Below are positions 30,271-64,000 of a stretch of 64,000 nt of DNA, piece after piece; positions within the stretch are counted from its first letter, which is position 1; the number at the start of each line of letters is the position of its first letter. A program made the translations under genes and the position numbers. The DNA is from Ignavibacteriota bacterium (GTDB lineage Bacteria; Bacteroidota; Ignavibacteria; UBA10030): positions 3,104,001-3,168,000 of the forward strand of contig OY969585.1 of the NCBI GenBank assembly GCA_963701295.1, written 5' to 3'. The notes under the pieces are model-generated. The model saw only the letters and a program-made list of their open reading frames with translations, ran no database searches and was not told where the DNA came from.

Positions 30271-30459
30271 GCCTAACGGATGGGCGTTAAGCTGTAGCAC
30301 TGATAACTTTCAATATATTCTAAACGAAATGAGTTCATGCTGAAAAATTTATTATTAAGAACCGAAACTTATGCAAGCCATGCTTAACGTACCCATTTAC
30401 CCGCCATGCTTTATCTTTGAGCGGGCGCTCATTCTATCAGCTTGAGCGCCTGGTTAGAT
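30271..30459 (-). repeat. attC site (189 bp, with 30-bp palindromic insert)
   Basis: Plus strand GCCTAACGGATGGGCGTTAAGCTG...TCAGCTTGAGCGCCTGGTTAGAT. Confidence 0.9.
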
Positions 30460-30897
30460 GGGCGATTTTATTTTCTTAGAATATTGTCTTTGACTAAAAA
30501 AGCCACCAACGAATCCCAACCCAACAATAATTAAAAAGAAAATATATGCGCGATAATTGAGCTGACCTCCAAAACTTATTTTCATTATGGTACCTAGAAA
30601 TCCTGCAAGTATGCCTATTAGAAGACCATGAATAGAAATATTGTTCCCAGTTTTCTTGGTGCTGATTAACGCAATAACAAAAGTGAAGAACATTTCAAGC
30701 AACGACATCATCCACCGGCTAATTGTAGCGGCAAAATGACTGATTGCAGCTTGGTCAGGCTTGCCATGAGCTTCAAATGCTAGTACAAAGGCATAGCCAG
30801 CAGTTATTATTGTTACTACGAGGAAGCTGAAAACAATTATTAAGAATGAAGAGACAACAACGCGAATCCATCGAATATTTGTTAAATGTAATTTCAT
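30454..30897 (-). CDS. Hypothetical 4-TM membrane protein (cassette)
   Basis: Hydrophobic ORF; stop inside R''; ends TCGCCCACCTAAC / GTTAGATGGGCGA complementary. Confidence 0.75.
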   Translation of the reverse strand: MKLHLTNIRWIRVVVSSFLIIVFSFLVVTIITAGYAFVLAFEAHGKPDQAAISHFAATISRWMMSLLEMFFTFVIALISTKKTGNNISIHGLLIGILAGFLGTIMKISFGGQLNYRAYIFFLIIVGLGFVGGFFSQRQYSKKIKSPI

Positions 30898-30922
30898 TTA
30901 TCTATGACCTTTCTGTTCGCCC

Positions 30923-31147
30923 ACCTAACGGATGGACGTTAATCCCGATTCGACAAATTTGATGTATTCCAATCAAATTGTAGTCGAATCGAGGATTTCA
31001 TAAAGCGGGAGCTCCAGCGCTGATAATTTTCAAAATGTACCAAATGAAACATGTTCATTGTACTATACTTTCAAATTAAAACAAAACCTCTATGCGCCTG
31101 CTTAACGTAACAATGCTCATCCGGTTAGCTTGAGCTGATGGTTAGGC
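30923..31147 (-). repeat. attC site interrupted in L' by a 68-bp palindromic insert
   Basis: ACCTAACGGATGGACGTTAA[TCCCG...CGGGA]GCT...AGCTTGAGCTGATGGTTAGGC. Confidence 0.8.
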
Positions 31148-31181
31148 GGCATCGTCTGTGTAAAGGCACACATATTTCACT

Positions 31182-31640
31182 CTAAGCTTGAAGACTACGT
31201 TTCCTCCATAGCGATAGTGCTAGGCCAACGATCATCAAAGTGAAGAGTATGAAGTTCACCATTGGTCCTGGTGGTGTTCCCGTGCGAACAAGTGGAACGA
31301 AATGGAGAAGCAGTTGTCTAGCCAAATAATCAAGCACTAGCAGTGCCAACATGAATGTGACCACGCTACGATATCGCACCAATACAATTATGCAAAGAAT
31401 ATTGATGACTAGGAGAGAAATCCCTGCGAGCGAAAATAGTGCTACGACTGTCTGTACGCCGGCGGGCGTGAATGTTTCAAGGGGAAATCCGTCGGCGTAC
31501 CTCGCGGTAGATTCACCGTTGAAGATAAGCATTAGACTCTGAAATGACTTAACGGACACAACCAATGCGAAGAGCCAGAGCGTAAATTTATGACCGCGAT
31601 ATGTATTATCGATTTGTTGAGGAAGAAGCCGATTGATCAT
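31182..31640 (-). CDS. Hypothetical membrane protein (cassette)
   Basis: 152 aa, four hydrophobic segments, RBS GAAAGGAA. Confidence 0.75.
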   Translation of the reverse strand: MINRLLPQQIDNTYRGHKFTLWLFALVVSVKSFQSLMLIFNGESTARYADGFPLETFTPAGVQTVVALFSLAGISLLVINILCIIVLVRYRSVVTFMLALLVLDYLARQLLLHFVPLVRTGTPPGPMVNFILFTLMIVGLALSLWRKRSLQA

Positions 31641-31740
31641 GACAGTTCCTTTCTTAACTGTGAGCAGCTAATTAACTTCCAAGTTGTACTAAACGAAACA
31701 AGCTCAATCACTTCCCTTTCTAACCAGCACCTTATCAATT

Positions 31741-32665
31741 TTACAAAAATCCTCTTGCTTTTAACCATTTTTTGCATGCTTCAGTCCACGATGACTCTGT
31801 GTCAGACGATCGACCTAGACCGTATCCATGTCCACCTGTTTCATACAGATGCAGTTCGCATGGGATACTGAACTTCTTTAAAGCTAAGGTATAGTTGATA
31901 CTGTTTTGAATAGGAACCACATTATCGTTGATTGAATGGACAAGAAATGCAGGTGGTGTTTGTTTGCTTACCTGCAATTCGTTTGAAAATCGGTTCACCA
32001 TTTCCGAAGAAGGATTTTTGCCAAGTAAATTTTCCCTCGAACCTAAATGGGTTATTGATGAATCCATCGAAATAACAGGATATATAAGTATTGAAAAATC
32101 TGGACGGGCATTTGTAGAATCTTTCGGCTCATATACTTTTTCTAGATAATGAGTTGAAATGGTAGATGCCAAATGCCCTCCCGCTGAAAATCCCATGATC
32201 CCAATCTTGTTGGGATCTATGTTCCATTCTTTGGCATGGCGGCGTACAATTCGGATCGATTCTTGTCCGTCCTGCATCGGGCCAATAGTTTTGTTGATCA
32301 TGATGGAAGTATCGGGCAGACGATATTTCAAGACAAAAGCAGTTATCCCAATACTGTTCAACCACATCGCTATTTGAGTGCCCTCGTGTGCAATTGCCAA
32401 TCCCCAATAAGCACCCCCCGGGCAAATAATTACAGCTGTCTTATTCGATTTTTCAACCGGTACTGAGGTACATATCAAGCATCGGAGTCGTCACATTTCG
32501 CATCTTCACCCAATTATCTTCCGAATCAATTGACTGTTTGTAGCTGGAATTGGTAAGAGCTCCAGGAACCTTGCCCTGCCAAATATCGATAACATTGGTT
32601 TGACCGGACAAATGATTTGTATACACCATAAGGAATAATATTGCTGGCACAATTGTTTGTTTCAT
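31741..32665 (-). pseudogene. Secreted alpha/beta-hydrolase carbohydrate esterase, frameshifted
   Basis: Signal-peptide ORF 32453-32665 continues in another frame near 32465 into CPGGAY, GFSAGGHLA, DNVVP, GGHGYG. Confidence 0.8.
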
Positions 32666-32675
32666 ACTCGTGACT

Positions 32676-33314
32676 CTATTTTTTTAATTCTCGTGCAATT
32701 ATTTCTGCCATGACCTTTACAGCTTTTTCGTTGGGATGAATATTGTCGGGAAAATTGCTTCCTTGGTTTTGCATTTGATGGTATAAATCGATGACCTTCA
32801 AGTTATTTGCGTTTGCAAGTCTTTCAATAATTGGAATAACTCCATGCACTACCGTCGAATCATTGATACCCCAGGTCGTTTCAAAGACCGGCACAGGCAG
32901 ACACAGGAAGATTGCCGGATGTGAGGGGATTGTTTTAAATGTATCGATCAGTGCCTGATAATCCTTCTCATATAAATCTGCATGCCAATTTTGAGGCTTT
33001 GTATCATTTGTTCCAAGTTTGATAATGATAATATCGGGTTCGAAAACAAAGACATTTGAAAATTCTTTATAGATCCAGTATGGGAAATCCCCTTTCTTTT
33101 GCAGCGTCGTAGCACTGCGCCCTGAGTTCAGTACAGAATAGTTCGCTCCGAGGATATTGTCAAGCACCACAGGGTATCCGGTTTTACTTTGGCATGCTAA
33201 TCCGTATCCCTCGGTAATGCTATCGCCAACGCAGGCTACCTTTATTTTCTTAGTAGTGAACGCTGATACAACCAGCGCAAAAATAATGAAACTGATCCAT
33301 CCGGGTTTTTTCAT
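32676..33314 (-). CDS. SGNH/GDSL esterase (acetylxylan/sialate O-acetylesterase-like)
   Basis: VACVGDSIT, LGTND, DNIHPN motifs; likely start MKKPGW at 33314. Confidence 0.85.
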   Translation of the reverse strand: MKKPGWISFIIFALVVSAFTTKKIKVACVGDSITEGYGLACQSKTGYPVVLDNILGANYSVLNSGRSATTLQKKGDFPYWIYKEFSNVFVFEPDIIIIKLGTNDTKPQNWHADLYEKDYQALIDTFKTIPSHPAIFLCLPVPVFETTWGINDSTVVHGVIPIIERLANANNLKVIDLYHQMQNQGSNFPDNIHPNEKAVKVMAEIIARELKK

Positions 33315-33399
33315 GGTATTTACTTTCAATAAATGAATTTCATTTGAAGTTTGGGGATATCTGTTCATTGTTTTAATTTCTATTTTGGTTGCCAATTGC

Positions 33400-33531
33400 G
33401 CATAACGGTCGAGGCTATGCACTGTGCGGGATTACGAAGCTGCGTACCTATCACCCGTGACGAAAATTTGCTACAAAAACTGAACTTGCAAAACCACTGA
33501 AACCCGCATTGCGTATGAGCCTTTGTTAGCA
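33400..33531 (-). repeat. Divergent attC of a different family (132 bp)
   Basis: GCATAACGGTCGAGGCTATGCACTGTGCGGG...CCCGCATTGCGTATGAGCCTTTGTTAGCA; box architecture present, sequence unlike the host family. Confidence 0.75.
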
Positions 33532-33542
33532 TACGTTTCGTT

Positions 33543-35054
33543 TTATTTCATAGATTTATATTTGAAGTTCTTAAATTTGACTTTCCCTTCACCAATGGAG
33601 CAAAGGCCGAGTCGTAAACTTAGAAATCCGCCCAATGCATTATGATTATAAGAAGAAACTTCAAGTGAATTTTCTATTTTATTCCATTTGACCCCATCGT
33701 TGCTGTAATACATATTGACTGTGTTGTTCATATTTTCGAGGCGCAAAAATACATGATTTTTAATTGCTTTTCTTTCGGTTGGGAATTGCCAACCCCGCAA
33801 ATTAGCCAAAATGTTTTCCTTATCTGCGCCTATGCCTGAATACGCATTGTTGTTGTAGAAAAGCACCAATCCCCCAGTTGCATCTCCCTCAATAAATAAT
33901 TCTACCTGTGCCATATATGAATGGTCTGAGGGGACACAAATCAAGGGAGAACAATCACCAACAGAATGACCTTTCGCATTAATAACTAAACTGTTGTCGA
34001 TCAAATGAAACCTACTAGTGTCGTATTCGTTATAGAATTTCCATTGTGACTTTAGCTCATTGCCCGCAAAATTATCATCTAAGGTAAATCCGATATCTGG
34101 AACTACACCGACGGGTCTTTTGATGGGTTCGTCTGCTTTAATGTTACCCGGTGTTTTATACCAACCGTCATTTGTCCATTCTATTGGTTGAAGCAAGGTC
34201 TGACGCCCCATATTATAATGTTCATTTTCATATCCATGAAAAACCATCCACCACTTTCCGTTTGCGTCTTCAAATAAAGTACCATGTCCTTTAGACCACC
34301 ATTTTTCAGAATTTTCTTTTGTTCTAATGATAGGGTTGAACGGAGAATTCTCCCAAGGACCCAAAGGCGATTTTGAACGTGCAGAAATTACCATGTGACT
34401 TGTCGCAGGACCTGCTGTACCACCTTCCGCAACTGTCAGGTAATAATATTCACCTCGTTTGACAAGCTTAGGCCCTTCCATACAAAAACATTCAATAGAC
34501 CATTCGCGAGGTATAGGCCAGCCATTGTAAGTGTGTTTGAATTCGCCTGTAACAGAAAGTCCATCCTCAGACAAAGGAACATAACCTCCACTACTAAAAT
34601 ACAAATATCGTTTACCTTCAGCGTCTGTAATATGGCCAGGATCGATATTACCTATTTTCAAATCTACAGGATCACTCCATGGACCTTTAATTGAATCGGC
34701 AGTGACAACATAATTTGTATTATTGGCAGGAAAATAAATGTAGTATTTTTTCTTGTATTTCACTAGGTCGGGAGCCCAAACTGAACCTATATATTTATGC
34801 AATGCATTTATTACTGGTGTCCAATTAATTAAATCTTTTGAATGCCAAATCAATAACCCCGGATAATAATCGAAAGATGAATGAACAATATAGTAATCGC
34901 TGCCATCGCGCAATATACTTGGGTCAGGGTAATCTCCTGCAAAAATTGGATTTAAATAATAACCGTCTCCTTTTTCAGAGGTATTAATTTGATGCTGTGC
35001 ATTCGCTAAGAAACCCAATTGAAGGAGCATTGCTATAATAATAGTTTTCTTCAT
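33543..35054 (-). CDS. GH43 beta-xylosidase/arabinofuranosidase (cassette)
   Basis: NPIFAGDYPDPSI, WAPDL, IDPGH, MEGPKL, GHGTL; C-terminal beta-sandwich; signal peptide. Confidence 0.9.
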   Translation of the reverse strand: MKKTIIIAMLLQLGFLANAQHQINTSEKGDGYYLNPIFAGDYPDPSILRDGSDYYIVHSSFDYYPGLLIWHSKDLINWTPVINALHKYIGSVWAPDLVKYKKKYYIYFPANNTNYVVTADSIKGPWSDPVDLKIGNIDPGHITDAEGKRYLYFSSGGYVPLSEDGLSVTGEFKHTYNGWPIPREWSIECFCMEGPKLVKRGEYYYLTVAEGGTAGPATSHMVISARSKSPLGPWENSPFNPIIRTKENSEKWWSKGHGTLFEDANGKWWMVFHGYENEHYNMGRQTLLQPIEWTNDGWYKTPGNIKADEPIKRPVGVVPDIGFTLDDNFAGNELKSQWKFYNEYDTSRFHLIDNSLVINAKGHSVGDCSPLICVPSDHSYMAQVELFIEGDATGGLVLFYNNNAYSGIGADKENILANLRGWQFPTERKAIKNHVFLRLENMNNTVNMYYSNDGVKWNKIENSLEVSSYNHNALGGFLSLRLGLCSIGEGKVKFKNFKYKSMK

Positions 35055-35212: not shown

Positions 35213-35408
35213 TTCTAACGGATGGCGGCTAAGCTGCCACACTGCAAATTCGCAACATGCACCCAACGAAACAAGTTTATACTAATAACCAAATTAAATA
35301 TTCCCCAACCAACGAGGTAATGAAAAGTTAATTATAAAAACTTAAACTCACCATCAGCCATGTAATTTGCAGTGAGCTCTTACCGTCAGCTTGAGCGCCT
35401 GGTTAGGC
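35213..35408 (-). repeat. attC site (196 bp, long class)
   Basis: TTCTAACGGATGGCGGCTAAGCTG...CCGTCAGCTTGAGCGCCTGGTTAGGC. Confidence 0.9.
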
Positions 35409-37128: not shown

Positions 37129-37354
37129 GCCTAATGGATGGCAACTAAGCTGCGGCACTGATAATTTGCAACATGCACCCAACGAAACAAGTTCATGCTG
37201 AAAGCCTAATTAATAAATACTAAACTTATAGGTACTAGAAACTGAATAATAAAAACGAAAACCCACTGCCAGTCCTGCTTAACGTACCCATTTACCCGCC
37301 ATGCTTTATCTTTGGGCGGGCGCTATTTCCGTCAGCTTGAGCGCCTGGTTAGGC
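37129..37354 (-). repeat. attC site (226 bp; R' mutated to ATTAGGC; 30-bp palindromic insert)
   Basis: GCCTAATGGATGGCAACTAAGCTGCGG...CCGTCAGCTTGAGCGCCTGGTTAGGC. Confidence 0.85.
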
Positions 37355-38040: not shown

Positions 38041-38080
38041 GCCTAACGGATTGGCGCTAAGCTGCGACGATGAAACTTTC
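38041..38080 (-). repeat. attC half-site (L'/R' only)
   Basis: GCCTAACGGATTGGCGCTAAGCTGCGACG then directly the stop of the next ORF. Confidence 0.75.
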
Positions 38081-38519: not shown

Positions 38520-38715
38520 GCCTAACGGATGGCAACTAAGCTGCGGCAACGTGAAGCCGCAAGTTGCTGAAAACGAAACAAGTTCATGCTGAGAACCAAA
38601 TTTATAAGTATCAAAGTTATAGGTACTAGAAACTGAATAACAAAAACGAAAACCCACCACCAGCAATGCTTAACGGCCATACGCTCCAACCGTCAGCTTG
38701 AGCGCCTGGTTAGGT
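38520..38715 (-). repeat. attC site (196 bp)
   Basis: GCCTAACGGATGGCAACTAAGCTGCGG...CCGTCAGCTTGAGCGCCTGGTTAGGT. Confidence 0.9.
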
Positions 38716-39455: not shown

Positions 39456-39612
39456 ATCTAACGGACCGGCGCTAAGCTGCGGCGCTGATAATTTTCAATA
39501 TTTTGAAAACGAAACGAGTTCACGCTAATAACTTTCAATTCTGTAATCAACCTATGCCCGCCTTGAATTTCACACCCAGCTGGCAACCGTCAGCTTGAGC
39601 GCCTGGTTAGCT
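39456..39612 (-). repeat. attC site (157 bp)
   Basis: ATCTAACGGACCGGCGCTAAGCTGCGG...CCGTCAGCTTGAGCGCCTGGTTAGCT. Confidence 0.9.
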
Positions 39613-40265: not shown

Positions 40266-40422
40266 ACCTAACGGATCGGCGCTAAGCTGCGGCACTGATA
40301 ACTTCCATAATGTACTAAACGAACCAAGTTCATTCACTTCACTTTCAATTCTGCACTTGACCTCTACGCGCAATGCAAAATGCACTCGCGCCTTTACCGT
40401 TAGCTTGAGCCGCAGGTTAGGC
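40266..40422 (-). repeat. attC site (157 bp)
   Basis: ACCTAACGGATCGGCGCTAAGCTGCGG...CCGTTAGCTTGAGCCGCAGGTTAGGC. Confidence 0.88.
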
Positions 40423-41406: not shown

Positions 41407-41450
41407 GCCTAACGGTCGGCGCTAAGCTGCGGCATCAATAATTTTCAAGT
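41407..41450 (-). repeat. attC half-site (L'/R' only)
   Basis: GCCTAACGGTCGGCGCTAAGCTGCGGCATCAATAATTTTCAA; no matching R''/L''. Confidence 0.75.
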
Positions 41451-41457: not shown

Positions 41458-42760
41458 TCATCTCAGTAAAACTAATTTCTTTGTTTCTGTAAACGATCCA
41501 GCCTGTAAACGATAAAAGTATATACCGCTTGATACATTGGCCGCATTCCATGGTTGATTATGATTACCAGCTTGCATTTCTCCATTTATTAATGTCTCAA
41601 CCTCTCTCCCTAAAATGTCATAGAGTTTTAAAATTACAAATGATCTTTTAGCGAGGGTGAAGGAAATAGTTGTACTGGGATTAAACGGATTTGGAAAGTT
41701 CTGCTTCAAAGAAAATGAAAAGGGTTCTGAGTTTCCTTTTTCTATCTTTATTTCAGTGGGAGAAGTTGTAACCCAGACACCGGAACTTGTCCCGGCAAAG
41801 ATACCGTCGCTGTTTACAGCCAGGGACCAAATACGGGTGTTGGCAGGTATCCCCGAGCTGAATGAAGCCCAGGTTACGCCGCCGTCGGCCGAGCGGTGGA
41901 CTCCGTTGTCATCTGTGCCGGCAAAAAGCTGATCATTCACAACGACGAAGCAATTTACGTTCTCCAGGCCGGAATTGTCTGCCGCCCAGTTCGTGCCGTA
42001 ATTGTCGGATATAAAAACACCGGTCAAGGTTACTGCGAACAATCTAGTACCCAACACCGCGAGCTGGGAGATGTGCATATCAGTAAGGCCAGAATTGATT
42101 GCAGTCCAGCTTGTTCCGCCGTTTGTTGTTTTGAAAACACCGTTGCTGGCACTTCCTGCAAAAATGGTGTTCCCACTTGCAACAATAGAGGCAATACGGG
42201 CATCCACTGGTATTCCCGAACTTACTCCGGTCCAGGGTACTGCCATCGTCCAAGGATTTATAGATACCACCTGTTATGCCCGCAAAAAGAGTGGAATTAA
42301 TCATCACAATGGACCATATGGTAGTATCTGCAGCTATTCCAGTGGGTACGACAGCATTCCAGGTTCTGCCGTCATCGGTGGATTGAAAAAACCCATTCCA
42401 TGTACCGACAAGAATTTTGGAGTTCAACATTACAATGGATAGAATGTCAATGCTGCTGTCTGCAGAACCGATCTGAGTCCAGTTCGTGCCGTCATCGGCG
42501 GTAAGAAACATACGGCCGCCATTAAGACTGTCCCATATCCGTGCAAAAACCTTGTCCTGGCTCGTGTATAGACTAAAAAAACTGTTGCTTGCCGGCCAAT
42601 TTGTCTGTATCCATCCGCTGTCGAGCGTGGTTGTGTAGACCGAAGCGCCGGCATTGCCATGCACATTGGCTGCGGCAACCGGCGTAAAACCAACCACTGC
42701 ATTTCCGAATGACAATACAACGGCCATCCAGGCCGTAGAGAACCGCAAAACTTGTTTCAT
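41458..42760 (-). pseudogene. BNR/Asp-box beta-propeller protein with T9SS CTD, frameshifted
   Basis: S.D.G.TW repeats in both ORFs; extra C at GGCAGTACCCTGG (~42236); CTD LKQNFPNPFNPST...SGIYFYRL...KKLVLLR. Confidence 0.8.
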
Positions 42761-44190: not shown

Positions 44191-44261
44191 AAATGGTACA
44201 CTTCTTCATAGATGAGGAATGATTTAGTGATTATTTTATATAAGCATAAGACTTTCAGCAA

Positions 44262-44412
44262 GCAGGATCTGCGCTAAGCTGCGGCGCTGATAAATTTCAA
44301 AATGCACCCAACGAAACAAGTTCATGTTGGCTCTTTCAATTTTGTACTGACCTATGCGCGCCATGCTTAACGTACTCACGCTTATTCCGTCAGCTTGAGC
44401 GCCTGGTTAGGC
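44262..44412 (-). repeat. attC site with degenerate R'
   Basis: GGATCTGCGCTAAGCTGCGG...CCGTCAGCTTGAGCGCCTGGTTAGGC; RYYYAAC end lost. Confidence 0.75.
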
Positions 44413-45291: not shown

Positions 45292-45388
45292 GCCTAACGA
45301 CCGGCGCTAAGCTGCGGCAACAATTCTTTTTCACTTGCTTATCCATCCCTCGATACCGGTCAGGTCAAGTTTGAGCGCCTGGTTAGGC
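45292..45388 (-). repeat. attC site (97 bp, short variant)
   Basis: GCCTAACGACCGGCGCTAAGCTGCGG...GTTTGAGCGCCTGGTTAGGC. Confidence 0.75.
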
Positions 45389-45927: not shown

Positions 45928-46079
45928 GCCTAACGGATCGACGCTAAGCTGCGACGATGAATACTTTCAAAGTGTACTATCACCGCGCAAGATTGATAAC
46001 TTAAATTCATAATCTAAACTTTCCACGCGCGGTAATTTGTACAATTGCTCCAACCGTCAGCTTGAGCGCCTGGTTAGGG
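45928..46079 (-). repeat. attC site (152 bp)
   Basis: GCCTAACGGATCGACGCTAAGCTGCG...CCGTCAGCTTGAGCGCCTGGTTAGGG. Confidence 0.9.
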
Positions 46080-46523: not shown

Positions 46524-46685
46524 CCCTAACGGACCGGCGCTAAGCTGCGGCGCTGATAATTTTCGTAATGCAACCAACGAAACAAGTTCATGCTTATAAC
46601 CAAATTGATAAGTATCAAAGTTATAGGTACTAAAAACCGAATAATAAAAACGAAAGCCCACCACAAGCAATGCTTAACGTACTCA
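46524..46685 (-). repeat. attC partial (L'/R' plus long loop; R''/L'' missing)
   Basis: CCCTAACGGACCGGCGCTAAGCTGCGG...GCAATGCTTAACGTACTC then unrelated sequence. Confidence 0.8.
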
Positions 46686-46714
46686 ATAACTACCTTCATC
46701 GTGTGAGCACAATG

Positions 46715-47648: not shown

Positions 47649-47787
47649 GATTTTCTCCTTTGTTTTTTGTTCTTATTACTAATTTTTGATATTACAATTT
47701 ACAAATTTCTAGAGCACTCCGCGAGCGTCTATATATTTCCTTCTGCTTATAAACTTGTTCGTGCGGGATATTGCATCCGCGTTCTGA

Positions 47788-47813
47788 CCGTTAGCATGAG
47801 CCGCCGATTAGGC
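47788..47813 (-). repeat. Degenerate attC half-site (R''/L'' only)
   Basis: CCGTTAGCATGAGCCGCCGATTAGGCGGTAC, complementary to cassette start GCACCGCCTAAC at 49124-49135. Confidence 0.6.
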
Positions 47814-49128: not shown

Positions 49129-49170
49129 GCCTAACGGATCGGCGCTAAGCTGCCGCACTGATTACTTTCG
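49129..49170 (-). repeat. attC half-site (L'/R' only)
   Basis: GCCTAACGGATCGGCGCTAAGCTGCCGCACTGATTACTTTC. Confidence 0.75.
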
Positions 49171-49271: not shown

Positions 49272-51953
49272 TCACTTTAATAGAATAAGTGCCTTCGTCT
49301 TAACAAAGTCACCTGTGTGTAATTGATAGAGATATACACCGCTGGAAAAGTTTTGGGCATCCCATTCCACCGAATAGGAACCAGGTTCTTTCCATTGATC
49401 AATGAGAACAGCAACTTCTCTACCAAGGAGATCATAAATCCTTAGTGAAACTTGACTCTTTTTTTGAATAGAAAATGAAATCTTGGTTGATGCATTGAAT
49501 GGATTGGGGTAATTCTGCTGCAAATTCAATTGACATGGAAGAGCATGACTCAGAGAAACAGATGTAATCCCTATCTCAGAACCATTGTAATGAATGACCG
49601 TATCGAATTTACTGGGACTAATTATACCAATACCCTTTCCAGTATCCACCCAAATGATATTGAAAATTTTATTTTGAGACATACCATTAAATGTTCCCTG
49701 TCTAGATCCGATGGTTAGCTGTTTTGAAGAATCATGATAAGTAATCGGGATAACTGAATATACTCCTCGTTCATAATTGTAGTTGTCATTTTCGTCTTCG
49801 TATAATGTGAATTGTCCATCCGCACCTCGATAAATTCGCAGTTCGAGCGTATCTGCAGGTTTTTCAGTGGCATATTGCATAAAAGGTCCTATCGGAATGA
49901 TGGAACCGGCTTTCACGAATAAAGGGATAGTTTCAATTGGTGCTTGAGCATCAATCGTTTGACCACCATTAAGAGATTCACCTGTCCAGAAATTATACCA
50001 TATGGTTGATTTCGGCAAATAAACTTTTCGCGTTTTAGATGTGTTGGTGCTAGTACTATATGATTGAGTGGTTACCGGATTTACAAGAAATGCCGGACCA
50101 AACATATATTGATCCTGAATATTAGTAATTGCTACGTCCGTTCGAAAATCAAAAGCAAGCGCTCGCATGATTGTATAGGATTCGTTGGTAACCTTCCAGG
50201 CGAGGGAATAGATATACGGTAGGAGTCGGTACCGCAGGTTATCGTAATTCAATAAAATTGATTTTGTATTTGCATCCCAGTTATTTGAAAACAACGCGCG
50301 TTCGCCTTTTCCATGAATTCTAAATATCGGACAGAAAGTGCCAAATTGGAACCAACGAGTAAACAATTCTCTGTTTGCAGCGGTTGTCCAATCGGGAGAT
50401 GTCCAGTTTAAATGATACCCTCCAATATCTGACGTCCAATATGGAATCCCGGAGACACAGGCGTTAATTGCCTGAGGCACTTGAATTGTATAAGAACTGA
50501 AGGTACACGTAATATCGGACGACCAAAGGGTTGTTGCATTTCGCTGCTGTCCGGCAAATGCCTGACGCACAAGGAAGAATGCTCGCTTTCCTGATATATC
50601 AGTTCTCCAGTTCTTATAAAGACCAATAGTATGTGTTAAGGAATAGGTATTGAAATAATCGATCCCTTTGCCAAGTGCAAAAATACTTTTTCTGCGTGCA
50701 TCTAGAAGTCCCCCATTGTCCGGTTCGCATTGGTCTACCCACCATGCATCCCATCCATAAGGAGTAATAAGACTATTATTCGCCTGTCTCCAATATATAT
50801 CTCGCGCATTGGAATTATGAGCATCATAGTATGTGTCATAATTATGTGTCATCACATCCTGCCAGGTAATATCAGTCAATCCTCCTGCGTTCTTCAACTC
50901 ATTAAAATTATTTGTTCCGCTTGCGAAAACCGGCCAAATCGAAATCATCGCATGAATGTTTGCTTTGTGTAACGAATCCACCATCGCTTTGGGATTAGGA
51001 TATCTGGTAGGGTTCATCACGTGCGAACCGATTACATCTGGTTCCCAGTAATACCAATCCTGAACGATGCAATCAACAGGGATGTGATTGTTTCGGTAAT
51101 TGTCTTTGACGGATAACACTTCAGCCTGGCTCTGATACCTATCCTGCGATTGAAACAATCCAAAACTCCACTTGGGAAACATTGGAGTCTGGCCAGTGGC
51201 TTCGCGGTAAAGTGAGATGATATGATCAAAGTCCGGACCGTAGAAAAAATAATAATCTACCATCGTACCGCTCTCCGATACATATTTGTATTTTGTATTG
51301 CCTGCCTCAGCACCATAAAAATTCGATGCCGAGTAGTTATCCCACATAAGTCCATACCCTTTGTTGGATAGTAAAACCGGAATTGCGCCAGTCATATATT
51401 GGATAGCCATATCCTGATTTCGGCCTTTGTAATTCATGGATCCGGCATCTGTCGGATGACAGCCCAATCCAAACAAAGCTTCATCCGCAGGAGATTGAAA
51501 GAGTGTTTCACTATTGTATGTATTGATGCCGGCAATGGTCGCCGCCGTCATATTCTTTCCTACAGAATCATCTTCGGCAAGTATAAGCGCACCATTAAGT
51601 TCGGTATACTGGATTGAATTGGTCAACTTTGTCAATTTGATTTTTATTTTACCGGTTGAAATAATTATCTCGGTTGAGCTTTCAGCAACTTGAAACTGAG
51701 GCTGAGTTATCCACGAGTTTGTTACTACCAAGGACGTTTTTGAAGAGAGTGCCGTCAACGATGTATATTTTACTTCAACGACATCCTCTTTACAAATTTT
51801 AATCTTCATGAAACCATTATCCAATGTGCATGTGATTCCATCGGCATCAGTTGTATACGATACTATGGAAGCCAGCGCAGTGTGACTGACTACGAAGAAA
51901 ATTAGGACAATTGTTATCGAGACAATGATACATTTATATTTAGACTTGTTCAT
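49272..51953 (-). CDS. GH31 alpha-xylosidase-like glycosidase with T9SS CTD
   Basis: WWVDQCEP, LWSSDI, PYWTSDIGG, FRIHG; CTD LQQNYPNPFN...SSGVYLYQL...KALILLK. Confidence 0.9.
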   Translation of the reverse strand: MNKSKYKCIIVSITIVLIFFVVSHTALASIVSYTTDADGITCTLDNGFMKIKICKEDVVEVKYTSLTALSSKTSLVVTNSWITQPQFQVAESSTEIIISTGKIKIKLTKLTNSIQYTELNGALILAEDDSVGKNMTAATIAGINTYNSETLFQSPADEALFGLGCHPTDAGSMNYKGRNQDMAIQYMTGAIPVLLSNKGYGLMWDNYSASNFYGAEAGNTKYKYVSESGTMVDYYFFYGPDFDHIISLYREATGQTPMFPKWSFGLFQSQDRYQSQAEVLSVKDNYRNNHIPVDCIVQDWYYWEPDVIGSHVMNPTRYPNPKAMVDSLHKANIHAMISIWPVFASGTNNFNELKNAGGLTDITWQDVMTHNYDTYYDAHNSNARDIYWRQANNSLITPYGWDAWWVDQCEPDNGGLLDARRKSIFALGKGIDYFNTYSLTHTIGLYKNWRTDISGKRAFFLVRQAFAGQQRNATTLWSSDITCTFSSYTIQVPQAINACVSGIPYWTSDIGGYHLNWTSPDWTTAANRELFTRWFQFGTFCPIFRIHGKGERALFSNNWDANTKSILLNYDNLRYRLLPYIYSLAWKVTNESYTIMRALAFDFRTDVAITNIQDQYMFGPAFLVNPVTTQSYSTSTNTSKTRKVYLPKSTIWYNFWTGESLNGGQTIDAQAPIETIPLFVKAGSIIPIGPFMQYATEKPADTLELRIYRGADGQFTLYEDENDNYNYERGVYSVIPITYHDSSKQLTIGSRQGTFNGMSQNKIFNIIWVDTGKGIGIISPSKFDTVIHYNGSEIGITSVSLSHALPCQLNLQQNYPNPFNASTKISFSIQKKSQVSLRIYDLLGREVAVLIDQWKEPGSYSVEWDAQNFSSGVYLYQLHTGDFVKTKALILLK

Positions 51954-52079
51954 AATAAATCAATCCTTTATTGGAGACCTATACTCTATCATTCGTACAT
52001 AAGATAGTCTAATATATGCATAAATTATTAACGCACATAGAGACGAGGAAATTGTGAAGAAATAATGTTATTGCAGGGA

Positions 52080-52112
52080 GCCCATTCCGTCAGCTTGAGC
52101 GCCTGGTTAGGC
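52080..52112 (-). repeat. attC half-site (R''/L'' only)
   Basis: GCCCATTCCGTCAGCTTGAGCGCCTGGTTAGGC with no adjacent L'/R'. Confidence 0.78.
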
Positions 52113-52516: not shown

Positions 52517-52674
52517 GCCTAACGGACCGGCGCTAAGCTGCGGCGTTGATAACTTTCGTAATGCACTAAACTAACGAGTTCATGCTGATGAATAAATTAT
52601 TAAGCATCTAAAACTTTAAGTGCAATGTAAATTGCTCCCAAGCTCACTCCGTCAGCTTGAGCGTCTGGTTAGGC
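52517..52674 (-). repeat. attC site (158 bp)
   Basis: GCCTAACGGACCGGCGCTAAGCTGCGG...CCGTCAGCTTGAGCGTCTGGTTAGGC. Confidence 0.9.
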
Positions 52675-53372: not shown

Positions 53373-53486
53373 GCCTAACGGATCGGCTCCCGATAAATCG
53401 GGACGCATCGGGAGTATAGTATTTACTTGTTGAGCTTGCGAAATCCCGCCTTGGCGGGGACTCTTTCCTTTTTAAAATGGTTAGGT
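53373..53486 (-). mobile_element. attC whose interior is replaced by a right-end remnant of the IS1111-type element
   Basis: GCCTAACGGATCGGC...ACGCATCGGGAGTATAGTATTTACTTG[insert]ACTCTTTCCTTTTTAAAATGGTTAGGT matches 60934-60987. Confidence 0.8.
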
Positions 53487-54758: not shown

Positions 54759-54914
54759 ACCTAACGGACCGGCGCTAAGCTGCGGCGTTGAAAAGTTTCG
54801 TAATGCAACCAACGAAACAAGTTCATTCAATTAACTTTCAATTAAACACTAAACCTATGCGCGCCATGAATTTTGCAGTGAGCTCATTCCGTCAGCTTGA
54901 GCGCCTGGTTAGGG
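54759..54914 (-). repeat. attC site (156 bp)
   Basis: ACCTAACGGACCGGCGCTAAGCTGCGG...CCGTCAGCTTGAGCGCCTGGTTAGGG. Confidence 0.9.
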
Positions 54915-54962: not shown

Positions 54963-55295
54963 ATGAATTATGAAGACAAACCTCTTGTTTGGTTACACGG
55001 TGAAGTAAAAACTCCACCGTTCTCAAAAAATGCTCGCCTTGAAGCTGGCTTTTTATTGAGACAGCTACAAGCGGGAGAAAAGCTAAGTCTCCCCTTCTCA
55101 AGACCGATGCCAGCAATTGGAGCAAGATGCCATGAACTCCGAATTAACGATGAAAATAAAATATGGCGTATCATTTATCGAATTGATTCCGATGCAATAA
55201 TTATTTTAGAAATCTTTCAAAAACAGACACAACAAACACCAAAGAATATTATTGATATCTGTAAACGTCGCTTACGAATATACGACGAATTATAA
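54963..55295 (+). CDS. RelE/ParE-family (HigB/Gp49-like) toxin
   Basis: KTPPFS..AR.EAG.LLR.LQ.G, SRPMP.IG.RCHELRI...WRIIYRID...F.K.TQ.TP. Confidence 0.88.
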   Translation: MNYEDKPLVWLHGEVKTPPFSKNARLEAGFLLRQLQAGEKLSLPFSRPMPAIGARCHELRINDENKIWRIIYRIDSDAIIILEIFQKQTQQTPKNIIDICKRRLRIYDEL

Positions 55296-55306
55296 GGACA
55301 ACAAAA

Positions 55307-55618
55307 ATGGATAAAGCAAAACAAAAACGTCTTGAATCCGCAGGATGGAAAGTTGGAACAGCAAGCAATTTCCTTAACCTTTCTTCTGAGGAATCTGCAT
55401 ATATCGAACTCAAACTTCAATTAGCAAAGAACCTGCAGAAACGACGTATTGAGAAAAAACTTACACAAATGGCAGTAGCCCGAATGCTTAAATCAAGCCA
55501 ATCGCGTGTAGCAAAAATGGAATCAGGTGATCCGACCGTTTCTATCGACCTACTCATCCGTTCTCTGTTAGCTCTCGGTGCTAAACCAAGAGCGTTATTA
55601 CGAACTATTGCTCAATAA
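55307..55618 (+). CDS. XRE/HTH antitoxin (HigA-like)
   Basis: LTQ..VA..LKSSQSRVAKMESGD HTH; 11 nt after toxin. Confidence 0.88.
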   Translation: MDKAKQKRLESAGWKVGTASNFLNLSSEESAYIELKLQLAKNLQKRRIEKKLTQMAVARMLKSSQSRVAKMESGDPTVSIDLLIRSLLALGAKPRALLRTIAQ

Positions 55619-55634: not shown

Positions 55635-55847
55635 CCCTAACGGATGGCAACTAAGCTGCGGCGCTGATAATTTTCAATATACACAAAACGAAGTGAGTTC
55701 ATGCTAAAAGTTTATTATTAAACATCTAAACCTCTACGCGCTATGCTTAACGTACCCATTTACCCGCCATGCTTTATCTTTGGGCGGGCGCTCATTCCGT
55801 CAGCTTGCTTGCCCGCCGTCTTGTTGGGCGGGAGCGCCTCGTTACCT
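55635..55847 (-). repeat. attC site with two palindromic inserts and degenerate R''
   Basis: CCCTAACGGATGGCAACTAAGCTGCGG...CCGTCAGCTTG[25 bp]AGCGCCTCGTTACCT. Confidence 0.8.
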
Positions 55848-56679: not shown

Positions 56680-56839
56680 ACCTAACGGATGGCGCATAAG
56701 CTGCGGCGTTGATAACTTTCAATATACTGAAAACGAACAAAGTTTATTCACATCACTATTGCGGAACATATCGGAAGAATATTATTTACTTGTCCGAAGG
56801 ACTCCTTCAGAGACTCTTTCCTTTTTAAAGTGGTTAGCC
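56680..56839 (-). mobile_element. attC fused to a second right-end remnant of the IS1111-type element
   Basis: ACCTAACGGATGGCGCATAAGCTGCGG...TTGCGGAACATATCGGAAGAATATTATTTACTTG[insert]ACTCTTTCCTTTTTAAAGTGGTTAGCC. Confidence 0.8.
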
Positions 56840-56853
56840 AGCATTTTGAATGC

Positions 56854-57711: not shown

Positions 57712-57904
57712 GTATAACGGTTGGCAACTAAGCTGCAGCGCTGATAAGTTACAAGTTGCTGAAAACGAAATGAGTTCATACTGATATTTTTATTATTAAG
57801 AACAAAACCTCTGCAAGCCATGCTTAACGTACCGAGCCTGCCCGCCGGAGTTTGCTTTGTAACGTAGGCGGGCTCATTCCGTCAGCTTGAGTTGCTGGTT
57901 ATGT
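57712..57904 (-). repeat. attC site (193 bp with palindromic insert)
   Basis: GTATAACGGTTGGCAACTAAGCTGC...CCGTCAGCTTGAGTTGCTGGTTATGT. Confidence 0.88.
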
Positions 57905-57914
57905 TGCAATTGTC

Positions 57915-59410: not shown

Positions 59411-59600
59411 ACCTAACGGGTGGGCACTAAGCTGCCGCACTGAATACTTTCAAGTTGCTGAAAACGAAACAAGTTTATGCTGATAACGAAATTAATTCCA
59501 CAAATGTTATGAAGTACAAAGAACTTAATAATAAAAACTGAAAACCACCATTCGCCATGCGTAAAGTACCAACGCTCATCCGGTCAGCTTGAGTGCCTGG
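59411..59600 (-). repeat. attC site (long class) split by IS; its R'' lies at 60981-60987
   Basis: ACCTAACGGGTGGGCACTAAGCTG...GTCAGCTTGAGTGCCTGG | IS | TTAGGC. Confidence 0.88.
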
Positions 59601-59681
59601 ATATTACCAAAAAGGAATCTCCCGATTATGTACATTGATAATTCTCTAGGTCACCAACATCCACAATCTAAGGAGATTCCC

Positions 59682-60683
59682 ATGTATTACTCAGGTATCG
59701 ATTTGCATTCTGATAATTGTTTTATCACCACTGTTGATGACACTGGTGCTGTCATCAAGCGACAACGTGTCGAGAATAACAATGAACGTGTTCTTGATTA
59801 CTTCCACTCTCTGCCCGGTCCTCATCACGCAGTCGTTGAGTCTACCACAGGATGGTACTGGCTCAACGATCTTCTCAGCGATCACGGCATCGAGCTTGTC
59901 CTTGCTCACGCCAAATATCTCAAAGCCATCAGTTATGCTAAAGTTAAAACAGATAAAGTCGATTCGCAAACTCTTGCTCTTCTCTTACGACAGGGACTCA
60001 TTCCACGGGCTCACAAAATCAGCCGAGAACTACGCGGCCTGCGCGATACCATGCGTATTCGTCTACGGCTCGTTCAGCAACGAACTGCCAGTCTTCTGCG
60101 TCTCTACAGTATTCAGACCAAATTTAACGGCTCTGTTCCGGATCCGTATCGTTTTCAACTTGCTGTCTTGCAACATACCAGAGACACTTTTACTGCTCAG
60201 ATCCTCTCGCTGGAAAAATCTCTCCATCCTGTGCTGATTCCCAACGACGATATTCAACGGCTCTTGCACATTCCAGGTATCGGCAAGCTCACCGCATTCA
60301 CGGTGTATCTTGAAATCGACGGCATTGAACGATTCGACTCCGATAAAAAGTTTGTCTCTTACTGCCGACTCGTCCCTGCTGCCGATAACTCCAATCGCTC
60401 TGTGCACCATCGCTCCAGCAAAGACGGCAATAAGTATCTCAAAATCGCCTTCTCCGATGCCGCTGTTCATGCTATTCAGTACTATCCGGAATACAAACGC
60501 TTATTCCAGAAATTAGCTCGTCGCTCCAATGAGGCGACTGCGCGAACCGTCGTTGCCAAAGAACTTGCGAAGATTGTTTACTATGTCTTAAAAAACAAAA
60601 CAATATATAAAGGTCTCAAAGGTCAGCCGATCAGCCGGCATAAATCTCAGCAGTGGCCGCGCCTCTCAAGCCCGCTTTCCTAA
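59682..60683 (+). CDS. IS110-family DEDD transposase/recombinase
   Basis: YSGIDLH, VVEST, KTDKVDS, IPGIGKLTA, SYCRLVP...S, KDGNKYLK; ATG 59682 after AAGGAG. Confidence 0.93.
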   Translation: MYYSGIDLHSDNCFITTVDDTGAVIKRQRVENNNERVLDYFHSLPGPHHAVVESTTGWYWLNDLLSDHGIELVLAHAKYLKAISYAKVKTDKVDSQTLALLLRQGLIPRAHKISRELRGLRDTMRIRLRLVQQRTASLLRLYSIQTKFNGSVPDPYRFQLAVLQHTRDTFTAQILSLEKSLHPVLIPNDDIQRLLHIPGIGKLTAFTVYLEIDGIERFDSDKKFVSYCRLVPAADNSNRSVHHRSSKDGNKYLKIAFSDAAVHAIQYYPEYKRLFQKLARRSNEATARTVVAKELAKIVYYVLKNKTIYKGLKGQPISRHKSQQWPRLSSPLS

Positions 60684-60900
60684 CTGATCCCGACTGCGTC
60701 GGGATCGTTCGCTGGATTGGGAAGAGAGTGCGCTGTGCCGTGGTAATATCTGGAACATCTCGCTCGACGAGATACGCTTTCACCATCGTTTCTTCAATGA
60801 GTGAATGTAAATCCGTAAACTGGTTTGGACGGCATTGCTCTGGTAATCGCCTGTCTATTCGATAGAGAACGCGGCATCGGCACGGATTCGGTCGTCCTTA
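60675..60900 (+). ncRNA. Candidate seek/bridge RNA of the IS1111-type element
   Basis: Structured region (GATCCCGAC/GTCGGGATC; GTGCCG/CGGCAC) with segments matching the IS junction (TGGTAATATC, TAAACTGG) and target (CCTAAC); boundaries uncertain. Confidence 0.55.
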
Positions 60901-60981
60901 ATGTTAAAGAACTCTGCATTCCGATTGCGCGGAACGCATCGGGAGTATATTATTTACTTGACTCTTTCCTTTTTAAACTGG

Positions 60982-61401
60982 TTAGGCGGCATTAATACAT
61001 AAAGATTTTTTACGAATCATAATGATAACCAATTTCTGTCGCTGAATAATGCTACCAAATAAGTACGCGATAGAAGGAAGCAACAACAACTGAGAACTAT
61101 ACTGTATAAAAACGTTATCGATAAATTGCGCTCGGACTATCAAGAAACAAAATGTAAATGTGATAATCCCATGCCAAGCAATATTCTTTCGTGAACGTTC
61201 TATGACATTTTGAATTGTACCTTTTTGAGCCCACTTTTCTGTGCCCCTTTTTGTGACCCAATGCCGTAACATTCTAATATTTAATTTCTGCCAAAACTTC
61301 TGTTCAATTTCTGTAACCGGTAAACAGATTAAAGGAATAGATATAATTGACAATACTAGGCAAACAATTGATGGAATAAAAAGTATAAACTGAATCTTCA
61401 T
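60982..61401 (-). CDS. Hypothetical membrane protein (cassette)
   Basis: Stop inside R''; ends TTAATGCCGCCTAAC / GTTAGGCGGCATTAA perfectly complementary. Confidence 0.65.
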   Translation of the reverse strand: MKIQFILFIPSIVCLVLSIISIPLICLPVTEIEQKFWQKLNIRMLRHWVTKRGTEKWAQKGTIQNVIERSRKNIAWHGIITFTFCFLIVRAQFIDNVFIQYSSQLLLLPSIAYLFGSIIQRQKLVIIMIRKKSLCINAA

Positions 61402-61428: not shown

Positions 61429-61623
61429 GCCTAACGGACCGGCGCTAAGCTGCGGCATGACAAAACCTCAACCTGCACCCAACGAAACAAGTTTAACCAC
61501 AAAACCAAATTAATAAAAACTAAACCAGCGAGAAACTTAAAACAAACTTAACAAACGTAAACCCACCACGCGCAATGTAAATTGCACTACGCTCACTCCG
61601 TCAGCTTGAGCGCCTGGTTAGGT
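61429..61623 (-). repeat. attC site (195 bp)
   Basis: GCCTAACGGACCGGCGCTAAGCTGCGG...CCGTCAGCTTGAGCGCCTGGTTAGGT. Confidence 0.9.
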
Positions 61624-61636
61624 TGCGTTTTGCCGA

Positions 61637-62188: not shown

Positions 62189-62348
62189 ACATAACGGACG
62201 GGCACTAAGCTGCGGCGTTGATAACTTTCGTCATGCAACCAACGAAACAAGTCCCACAACGAAAGTTTTATCATTTGCACCAGACCCTATGCTTAGCCAT
62301 GTTAATTGCACCCAGCTGGCAACCGTCAGCTTGAGTGCCTGGTTAGGC
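62189..62348 (-). repeat. attC site (160 bp)
   Basis: ACATAACGGACGGGCACTAAGCTGCGG...CCGTCAGCTTGAGTGCCTGGTTAGGC. Confidence 0.9.
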
Positions 62349-62648
62349 TATTGTTACTTTGTTGTACAAACTTTCTTCATAGACAAAATATTCCGACTCT
62401 TTCATAACTCGAATTTTTCTGAGCACAGGCAGCGCATCACCGAGATGCTTTTTGGAACTTAACTTGCACTGCTTTTTTATTCTCGTTCAAATCAAAACTT
62501 GTTGACAACGTAACCGTATAGAAAGCAACCAACATTTTAGTCTGCACTTCGCCCTTAGAAACTTTTGCCAGTAGAAAGAAATATAAAACCCAAATAGGTA
62601 ACCACAATACTTTAAAACACAACTCACACAAAGCGCGCTGCCTGTGCA
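62349..62648 (-). other. ORF-less cassette A with 13-bp inverted repeat
   Basis: GCACAGGCAGCGC (62423-62435) / GCGCTGCCTGTGC (62635-62647); no ORF with a start inside the cassette. Confidence 0.75.
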
Positions 62649-62805
62649 GCCTAACGATTGGCAACTAAGCTGCGGCGTTGATAATTACGAGTCATGCAAT
62701 CAACGAAACGAGCCACACGTCTTTCGCGCCATAAAAATAACGTGTGTTTAGCGCCATGAATTTACCACCAACGCTCCAACCGTCAGCTTGAGTTGCTGGT
62801 TATGT
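62649..62805 (-). repeat. attC site (157 bp)
   Basis: GCCTAACGATTGGCAACTAAGCTGCGG...CCGTCAGCTTGAGTTGCTGGTTATGT. Confidence 0.88.
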
Positions 62806-63079
62806 TATAGTTTATTTAATGTACAAACTTTCCGAAAAACAATATTCGCTAACATCATCATAACTTGAATGTTTCTGAGCACAGGCAGCGCATCGCCGAG
62901 ATTCTTTTCGGTGCTTAACATGCACTGCTTTTTTCTCGTACAAAACAAAACTTGTTGACAGCATAACTTATAGAAAGCAACCAATCGCGAATTTTGTACA
63001 ATGTGAATGAAACTTAAAGCCAGTAGAACGCGATTACCAAACCCCGCAAGTAACACATACAGAGCGCGCTGCCTGTGCA
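62806..63079 (-). other. ORF-less cassette B, homolog of cassette A
   Basis: Same 13-bp IR (62879-62891 / 63066-63078) and shared blocks TGCACTGCTTTTTT, AAAACTTGTTGACA, TATAGAAAGCAACCAA, GCCAGTAGAA. Confidence 0.75.
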
Positions 63080-63232
63080 ACATAACGGACGGCAACTAAG
63101 CTGCAGCGCTGAAATGCCGTAAGTTGCTGAATACAAAATAAGTTTATTATAAGATCTTTTAAACAATAATTTCTAAGCGCCATGCTTAACGTACCAACGC
63201 TCATTCTGTCAGCTTGAGTTGCTTGGTTAGGC
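63080..63232 (-). repeat. attC site (153 bp)
   Basis: ACATAACGGACGGCAACTAAGCTGCAG...CTGTCAGCTTGAGTTGCTTGGTTAGGC. Confidence 0.88.
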
Positions 63233-63431
63233 CAACAGATTTTAATTTTATCACCATTGGTCGAAAGACAACGACCGATACTTTCAAAATGTACTCAACG
63301 AAATAGATACTTGCGCGTGCGGTGCAAACGAATATTCAATTTAAACGGCACGACGTAGATAGCATTCAAACACTCGTAACAACAAAACATTTTTAAAAAC
63401 ATAATTACTAAACTTTCGCACCGCACGCGCG
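63233..63431 (-). other. ORF-less cassette C with a different 13-bp inverted repeat
   Basis: GCGCGTGCGGTGC (63313-63325) / GCACCGCACGCGC (63418-63430). Confidence 0.72.
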
Positions 63432-63583
63432 GCCTAACGGACGGCAACTAAGCTGCAGCGCTGATATGCCGCAAGTTGCTATCAACAAACCAAGTTTATT
63501 ACAAAATCTTTTAAACAATAATCTCTAAGTGTCATGCTTAACGTACCAATGCTCATTCTGTCAGCTTGAGTTGCTGGTTAGAA
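63432..63583 (-). repeat. attC site (152 bp)
   Basis: GCCTAACGGACGGCAACTAAGCTGCAG...CTGTCAGCTTGAGTTGCTGGTTAGAA. Confidence 0.9.
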
Positions 63584-63664
63584 CGCACGCGGTAGAATGC
63601 TCTATATAACATATGCAAGCATAAAGAGAACTATTGTCAGGGAGTAAAACAAAACGACCGTCAT

Positions 63665-64000
63665 TTAGTCGTTTGTTAACTGCCGTGCCTGCTTGATTTC
63701 TTCAGCAATTTCTTGAATCACTTTCCAGTTACGGGAGAGCCGTAAATATTTCGGATGATATGTACGGTAACATAGCTTTGGCAAACCTGGATGCTTGATT
63801 CGAAGCAGCAAGCCTACTTCAGGAGTACACTTCAATCCGGGGAATGTCTCTTTGAGACGTTCGTCATATTTTGAGCCTGTAAAGAATACCACAGCGTCTG
63901 GCTGCGTAATATCAATTTCCTTCTGTAAAAGGCCGAGATGACATATCTCATTTTCTGCATCAGCATCAGGTCTTCCATTCGACTGATCAAGCTTCACAAG
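63665..64000 (-). CDS. Partial (5' end outside window) uracil-DNA glycosylase superfamily-like protein (cassette)
   Basis: EIDITQPDAVVFFTG and RTYHPKYL resemble UDG-superfamily motifs. Confidence 0.5.
   Translation of the reverse strand, partial: LVKLDQSNGRPDADAENEICHLGLLQKEIDITQPDAVVFFTGSKYDERLKETFPGLKCTPEVGLLLRIKHPGLPKLCYRTYHPKYLRLSRNWKVIQEIAEEIKQARQLTND

Follow-up and report, generated by a model that had tools for sequence, protein, structure and literature searches.

The window considered here is a stretch of 64,000 nucleotides from the chromosome of an Ignavibacteriota bacterium (contig OY969585.1 of assembly GCA_963701295.1), the right-hand part of which, from position 30271 onwards, is filled by an integron cassette array that is called array G below. 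In integrons the integrase IntI cleaves attC sites at AA|C in their folded bottom strand, excision of a cassette being the product of attC x attC recombination and insertion that of attC x attI recombination. The open reading frames (ORFs) between the attC sites of the window lie on the minus strand and encode glycoside hydrolases, Por-tail secreted proteins, methyltransferases, esterases and unknown proteins. Array G runs 4 kb past the right edge of the window, via four more attC sites, to an attI of its own, giving it a total length of 38 kb. Positions without a prefix are those of the window, those marked genome or C1 are chromosome positions, and G000 denotes the studied genome, other G-numbers being relatives.

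A homogeneous family of long attC sites

A repeat search of the window recovers families of 15–20 copies that span 30.2–63.6 kb. Hidden Markov models (HMMs) of the two attC arms find 164 left-arm and 156 right-arm matches in the genome at E<=1, against one match for each arm in the reversed genome. Between 30271 and 64000 there are 28 sites, made up of 22 whole or interrupted sites and six half-sites; the 22 comprise 19 paired by HMM, one whole site whose L' contains an insert (30923-31147) and two scarred by an insertion sequence (IS; ~56680-56842 and 53373-53486). The genome holds 129 paired sites of this one family, distributed over nine arrays. Over 22 sites the mean pairwise identity is 66%, with near-invariant arms, and an Rfam scan of the window returned no matches. 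Lengths in the window fall at 152-160, 188-196 and 213-226 bp, with a single site of 97 bp. Genome-wide, 74 sites measure 149-160 bp, 39 measure 182-199 bp, 11 exceed 200 bp and five are below 141 bp, which leaves 124 of the 129 above 141 bp. The length classes derive from two loop modules of ~38 and ~31 nt, both of which are carried by the 226-bp site.

On the cassette strand the sites are ordered as R'' (7), a 5-nt spacer, L'' (8), the loop, L' (7), an 8-nt spacer and R' (7). The L'-R' spacer is 8 nt in 124 of the 129 paired sites and the R''-L'' spacer 5 nt in 103, with 23 not measurable. Published attC sites are 57-141 bp long (PMC5371416) and usually have five to six nucleotides of central spacer per arm (PMC5027507); the present family lies outside both ranges, which are typical values rather than strict limits. 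The unequal spacers give the hairpin a lopsided central bulge, in which three of the eight L'-R' bases pair with the short spacer and the bottom strand presents GGAnn opposite TG; the shape of the central spacer affects recombination (PMC2727003). The bottom (plus) strand folds with one extrahelical G and one extrahelical T, 6 bp apart, in keeping with the extrahelical-base rule for attC (PMC5027507). The hairpin core pairs of R''/R' (AAC/GTT) and L''/L' form in 90-95 of 95 unique arm pairs. Two spacer columns and the first L column are paired in 72, 68 and 75 of these, the shuffle maxima being 61, 51 and 69, and the stem column beyond L is paired in 79 (shuffle maximum 63), with the qualification that kin sites among the 95 are not independent. 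If the sites serve IntI, the 8-nt spacer would add three covarying stem pairs and the integrase of this clade would have to accept the GGAnn/TG bulge.

The recombinogenic fold has a median predicted probability of 0.27 and reaches at least 0.1 in 64 of 86 canonical-box sites; the three scored sites above 200 bp fold poorly (median 0.004). These predicted probabilities do not support the idea that long loops act as a folding brake, those three sites excepted. IntegronFinder has a default maximum attC size of 200 bp, which is exceeded by 11 of the 129 sites. Judged on these features the window repeats are real attC sites, and recombination of their bottom strand by IntI is suggested by shared cassettes, described below, that are exact to the crossover.

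A sequence-only reading of the window had proposed an integron cassette array with homogeneous, unusually long attC sites, which the arm HMMs and the lengths bear out. Its attC consensus stands as written, and its length clusters of ~152-160 and ~195-196 bp, reaching 226 bp, agree with the classes found. Its figures of about 23 full or interrupted sites and about 8 half-sites placed the right family at the right location and are revised by the recount. The extrahelical G and T had been recognised, the 8-nt L'-R' spacer and its bulge overlooked, and the long loops, supposed to be poorly paired and perhaps to let the sites escape standard detection, bring no predicted hindrance to folding. The description of the sites as host-specific is better replaced by one at the level of genus or family: copies of the arm pattern number 43-157 in all five sampled genomes of the genus, and six genomes from the family or order have 4-24, with 0-1 in the remainder of the 300 sampled genomes of the phylum. 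Integrons have already been reported in Ignavibacteriae via IntegronFinder (PMC9024848), and Ignavibacteriae are not among the taxa for which the available text of PMC8352920 gives specific attC models. Sites of 150-200 bp with an 8/5 spacer would broaden the known substrate range of IntI and could serve, at the level of the family, as a model for finding cassettes in Ignavibacteria.

One integrase and nine arrays

The genome is a single contig, 99.3% complete, with one ORF above the TIGR02249 cut-off (453 bits against 265). This intI gene (C1:3566706-3567665) lies ~395 kb from array G and encodes an intact protein of 319 residues that aligns over its full length, integron-specific insert included, with VchIntIA (2a3v; E 4e-86). 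Its catalytic R, K, HxxR, H and Y motifs are unchanged relative to 2a3v, and by sequence it classes as an integron integrase. HMM, tblastn and blastn searches found no intI or intI stub beside array G. A 45-codon piece at genome 581,744-581,878, away from the arrays, is 98% identical in protein and 78% in DNA to the C-terminus of IntI; a similar piece adjoins intI in G011.

[quoted passage not shown] Its homogeneous attC sites and its orientation, with the bottom strand on the leading-strand template, are those of a sedentary chromosomal integron, in which an adjacent intI would also be expected. Array G thus behaves like a sedentary chromosomal integron yet files as a CALIN for want of that gene. 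With the replication origin and terminus placed from GC skew, eight of the nine arrays have the bottom strand on the leading-strand template, as in stable chromosomal integrons (PMC5371416). The sequence-only reading had taken the array for a single super-integron with attI and intI to its right. The genome does hold the integrase it had called for, and the attI is where it was expected, 4 kb past the window (genome 3,172,046), but no intI adjoins the array, which is one of nine. Its Ignavibacteria-like host is consistent with the 13 records that match the attI pattern, 12 of which are labelled Ignavibacteriae, Ignavibacteriota, Ignavibacteriaceae, Bacteroidota or Bacteroidetes; the remaining one, from Acidobacteria, has no intI or attC nearby.

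The intI-side attI, located between intI and the first cassette, is made up of two palindromic units in tandem, together with the core GTCTAAT-CAGA-G|TTAGG. The attI of array G (C1:3172041-3172126, crossover 3172046) has the same two units and a core GTCTAAT-CATA-G|TTAGG, 69/71 identical (97%) to the intI-side core. Full copies stand at the heads of arrays A (224k), C (1797k), E (2465k), F (2834k) and G (3172k) and a half copy in H (3446k), which with the intI-side copy makes six full and one half in the genome. In all five full satellite copies the core of 71 bp shows 92-100% identity to its intI-side counterpart, whereas the adjoining spacer is only 73-77% identical, or 43% for the head with another upstream module; heads G and F are 92% identical over 221 bp. 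Within the 12 kb that follow each of the seven cognate attI there are 6-11 attC left arms, in contrast to the 0-2 behind four orphan attI of other IntI clades (genome 98.9k, 1,046.7k, 1,406.9k and 3,339.6k). The ends of the first cassette match at 9-10 of 10 positions in four of the six attI-headed G000 arrays scored and at five in A and G.

The distance from TAAT to GTT is 4 bp in these sites, compared with 5 bp in attI2 and the Shewanella site (PMC12901181, PMC9892861). The idea that the attC spacer of 8 nt and the attI spacer of 4 bp have adapted to each other was rejected because G002, G005 and G008 share the attC pattern yet have a 5-bp attI. A shared mobile element around the satellites was likewise rejected, the flanks being unrelated chromosomal genes (functions judged by eye). 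A conserved motif at the left edge of the attI-head module, TTGCRT-17-TAGATT, might be a candidate for the Pc region.

In three instances a complete cassette with its attC occurs at 100% identity in two different intI-less arrays: A11 and E10 (1968/1968 bp), A07 and E21 (436/436) and E14 and G08 (460/460). Identity ends at the G|TT crossovers, extending beyond them upstream by only 2-5 nt, against a median of 4 for random attC pairs, and downstream by 5-9 nt, and identity bounded in this way indicates site-specific insertion rather than a long conversion tract. Counted from the G, cassette ends match over up to 15 bp and in many cassettes over only 4-8; the 11-19 bp of complementarity described by the sequence-only reading fits the best cases.

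Among 40 relatives an attI match was found in 12 (10 of the 15 within the genus) and an IntI in 19. Twelve attI loci of relatives, chosen for lacking a whole intI, were fetched; the flanks obtained contain no intact intI and one stub, attC arms follow downstream in 10, and two reach contig ends. One intI-less head is orthologous in G009, G008, G001 and G004 and carries four unrelated first cassettes; the genes before it are presumably nadC-nadA-nadB. In G000 the attI at this nad locus is decayed and has no array, and the intI-less left boundary is common to G009, G004 and G000. The first cassette at head F also differs between G000 and G009. In G002 and G008 the IntI belongs to a different clade (60-62% identical) and attI is of a second type, and their satellites match their own intI-side attI at 99% and 96%, respectively. 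The intI locus is conserved in the three closest relatives and differs in six other genus members. No array is present beside the orthologous right-flank gene of array G in four relatives or the left-flank gene in three, two of the stretches being short, and at most one stray attC arm lies beside these orthologues; array G looks lineage-specific.

A proposed distributed integron and its rivals

It is proposed, with a probability of about 0.75, that these arrays form a distributed integron, in which a single distant IntI loads and reshuffles several satellite attI docks in trans, array G included. A diffusible IntI would take each cognate attI as a target, thereby creating several independent first-cassette positions per cell. 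The docks could have arisen by two routes. Additional integron platforms may have lost intI whilst keeping the promoter region and attI, as suggested by intI 5' stubs at heads in G000 (array E), G006, G002 and G008, and by a whole intI in G008 at a locus where G009 has an intI-less head. In some cases attI units may have entered at a G|TT target that was new to them. In G000, unrelated DNA precedes heads C and H, whose attI unit starts at G|TT. At one orthologous locus G009 has a plain type-B attI, and G004 and G013 have a decayed type-B one followed, exactly at the crossover, by type-A. Type-A attI consists of tandem units that each begin with a GTT box.

The presence of attI units exactly at the crossover of another site means that attI may spread as a mini-cassette. 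A first cassette excised from the upstream GTT box would yield a circle that carries attI and could insert at any G|TT. Such circles would seed new docks and convert old ones, generating a self-seeding network across the chromosome from one enzyme and non-canonical attC hairpins. This self-spreading is put forward tentatively, as less likely than not.

Two other readings accept the repeats as attC sites. The arrays may be alive with their attI unused, IntI inserting at internal attC sites in trans and the attI being kept alike by gene conversion or by the binding of a regulator. The identical shared cassettes deep within arrays, the arrays B and D without attI, the palindromic nature of the attI units, which could bind a protein, and two G009 heads that are identical even in the promoter region (117/117), as gene conversion predicts, all fit such a scheme. 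It accounts poorly for first cassettes that differ at orthologous intI-less heads, for the four heads of six where the ends of the first cassette match as in a whole inserted cassette, for conservation confined to the 71-bp core and for non-cognate attI that are nearly free of cassettes in G000, and it is considered unlikely. Somewhat less likely still is a reading of the arrays as frozen CALINs, in which integrons were duplicated or fragmented, lost intI and now decay. CALINs are commonly interpreted in this way (PMC4889954, PMC9024848), and the intI 5' stubs, the whole intI of G008 opposite the intI-less head of G009, the many damaged sites and the 11 IS insertions lend themselves to it. For recent times it is already largely refuted by cassettes of up to 1968 bp that are 100% identical, with crossover-exact ends, between intI-less arrays, and by an attI core far more conserved than its flank; the cassettes also differ behind the intI-less boundary at the nad locus that G009, G004 and G000 have in common.

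The repeats might instead be another palindrome or RNA family, or the arrays an assembly artefact, which is very improbable. Length and the 8-nt spacer do place the sites outside the usual attC range (PMC5371416, PMC5027507), and public reads say little about the assembly: no RNA run with G000 was listed, the four DNA runs contain it at shares of at most 0.15, and the array joints hit attC repeats from other organisms, which makes them uninformative. Set against this are boxes R and L, the spacing of the extrahelical bases, stem columns that covary above shuffle, the gene-attC periodicity, the same family beside intI, the lack of an Rfam match, an IS at a fixed attC position and the same layout in independent relatives.

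Several observations weigh against the distributed integron. The identical cassettes lie 7-21 places behind attI and may therefore have entered by attC x attC recombination, so that use of attI is not proven by them. Arrays B and D lack a head attI, and the distal half of array G is decayed, with half-sites, IS scars and multi-gene inserts. Array A (225-261k) alone opposes replication, the GC skew being reversed over the array itself. G009 has two arrays (4-8 sites) behind type-B attI although only a non-cognate, type-A intI was found, which weakens a cognate-only control. Trees of the attI core contain no well-supported inner branch, hence homogenisation is not shown by phylogeny, and a promoter scan detected no sigma-70 site at the head of array G. 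Moreover, the relatives are draft assemblies, in which repeats can be mis-joined.

Amongst known systems, CALINs (PMC4889954, PMC9024848) share with array G an attC array with no intI within many kb, and excision of their cassettes by an IntI elsewhere is allowed (PMC4889954, PMC9668308, PMC12444791). They average 5-6 sites, compared with 32 in array G, and are described as donors or remnants rather than as maintained insertion platforms, whereas array G has its own conserved attI and cassettes identical to those of sister arrays. Sedentary chromosomal integrons (PMC5371416) are alike in chromosomal location, homogeneous attC, a bottom strand on the leading-strand template, as well as a likely toxin-antitoxin cassette; here, in contrast, the reservoir extends over nine loci with one intI, with attC of 149-199 rather than 57-141 bp and an L'-R' spacer of 8 rather than 5-6 nt. 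The CALIN of the Shewanella prophage M16-3 (PMC9892861) also has its own attI and shares a replicon with a complete integron, but is a single case in a 40-kb cryptic prophage for which the available text gives no evidence of exchange, unlike the six satellites, the recurrence within the genus and the two attI types found here. In Delta-attI cassettes (PMC12901181) pieces of attI travel with cassettes, also between integron classes; there the piece replaces the attC downstream of a gene, whereas here whole attI units head arrays, directly after the crossover of another site. IntI can also insert cassettes at genomic attG sites outside the att sites (10.1101/2022.09.11.507474), and for IntI1 integrons have been described to recombine with one another by attI x attI (PMC4792948). 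A literature search, mainly of open-access main texts, found nothing on several attI per chromosome and the M16-3 case as the one precedent for an attI-headed CALIN.

Complete integrons and CALINs are roughly equally frequent, the latter being regarded as remnants or passive donors. Should many CALINs be headed by a maintained attI and receive cassettes in trans, the number of cassettes counted per integron, the expression model with a single first position and what 'integrase-less' means would all change, and a cell could try several new cassettes simultaneously at separate loci. The closed chromosome studied here combines a single IntI with 129 attC sites and with attI copies of which six are full and cognate and four non-cognate.

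Window features and the insertion sequence

The IS110/IS1111-type element of the window is one of nine identical copies in the genome, to which two diverged copies (81-83%) are added, and all 11 lie at the same position in the R''-L'' spacer of an attC; remnants of IS ends scar two further window sites. In the 3' non-coding region an 8-mer and a 10-mer match the two sides of the circle junction (60816 and 60741), as a bridge or seek RNA would, and no 7-mer matches the attC target. The IS1111-attC insertion sequences (PMC11187229) share with it a DEDD transposase, an extended non-coding region at the 3' side, short inverted repeats in sub-terminal position and a fixed attC target, a likeness to that subgroup by features.

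Table 1. Features of array G in window coordinates, and the nine arrays in genome coordinates
Feature	Position	Strand	Remark
Cassette array G, in-window part	30271..64000	-	genes and attC top strands on minus strand
attC, 152 bp	63432..63583	-	
attC, 153 bp	63080..63232	-	R''-L'' spacer 6 nt
attC, 157 bp	62649..62805	-	
Cassette G08, 460 bp	62195..62654	-	identical to cassette E14 at genome 2,478,235-2,478,694; identity bounded by both crossovers
attC, 160 bp	62189..62348	-	
attC, 195 bp	61429..61623	-	
attC, interrupted	59411..60987	-	R''-L'' spacer split by IS110/IS1111-type element
IS110/IS1111-type element, 1381 bp	59600..60980	+	DEDD transposase ORF 59589-60683; 3' non-coding 297 bp
attC, 193 bp	57712..57904	-	
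attC, damaged	56680..56842	-	right arm whole, left arm replaced by IS end remnant; far end approximate
attC, 213 bp	55635..55847	-	left arm with small hairpin insert
Two-gene cassette	54963..55618	+	faces against array; Gp49/DUF891-family and HTH proteins
attC, 156 bp	54759..54914	-	
attC, damaged	53373..53486	-	R'' and R' kept, interior replaced by IS end remnant
attC, 158 bp	52517..52674	-	
Half-site	52079..52112	-	left arm alone
Half-site	49129..49160	-	right arm alone
Half-site	47770..47813	-	degenerate left arm; inner end approximate
Half-site	46524..46700	-	right arm kept with loop, left arm lost; approximate far end
attC, 152 bp	45928..46079	-	
attC, 97 bp	45292..45388	-	internal deletion
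attC, 155 bp	44258..44412	-	R' box destroyed
Half-site	41407..41435	-	right arm alone
attC, 157 bp	40266..40422	-	
attC, 157 bp	39456..39612	-	
attC, 196 bp	38520..38715	-	
Half-site	38041..38072	-	right arm alone
attC, 226 bp	37129..37354	-	both loop modules
attC, 196 bp	35213..35408	-	
attC	30923..31147	-	insert breaks L'
attC, 189 bp	30271..30459	-	distal (last) site
Array A	genome 225-261k		attI-headed
Array B	genome 1156-1163k		no attI
Array C	genome 1797-1810k		attI-headed
Array D	genome 2373-2441k		no attI
Array E	genome 2465-2496k		attI-headed, intI 5' stub
Array F	genome 2820-2833k		attI-headed
Array G (window array)	genome 3134-3172k		attI-headed
Array H	genome 3439-3457k		half attI
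Array I	genome 3533-3565k		beside intI

The two-gene cassette that faces against the array is likely to encode a toxin-antitoxin pair; when 21 cassette proteins were run through PADLOC, weak matches only were returned, on this pair. Two stretches between damaged attC sites are multi-gene, several kb long and above the usual cassette size, namely 31182-35054 (GH43, GDSL lipase and esterase) and 47864-51953 (GH31 and esterase). The genes at 41458-42760 (secreted repeat protein) and 46715-47648 (SPFH/Band 7) are each represented by two overlapping ORFs, and frameshifts are likely. At 62195-63437 short cassettes with little or no coding content follow one another, and the same family occurs in arrays A, C and E.

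The heads and tails of arrays have different neighbours across species (loci L066, L094, L103 and L065 compared with G000), and in G009 the tail flank of the intI array of G000 sits after a head that lacks intI. Arrays resemble breakpoints of rearrangement, with recombination between arrays perhaps the cause. Upstream of head G, at genome ~3,172,330-3,172,370, there is a 41-bp piece that is 95% identical to the 5' part of tRNA-Arg(TCG); the whole tRNA gene is found at 2,498,254 behind array E, and the gene neighbouring head G adjoins that tRNA region in three relatives.

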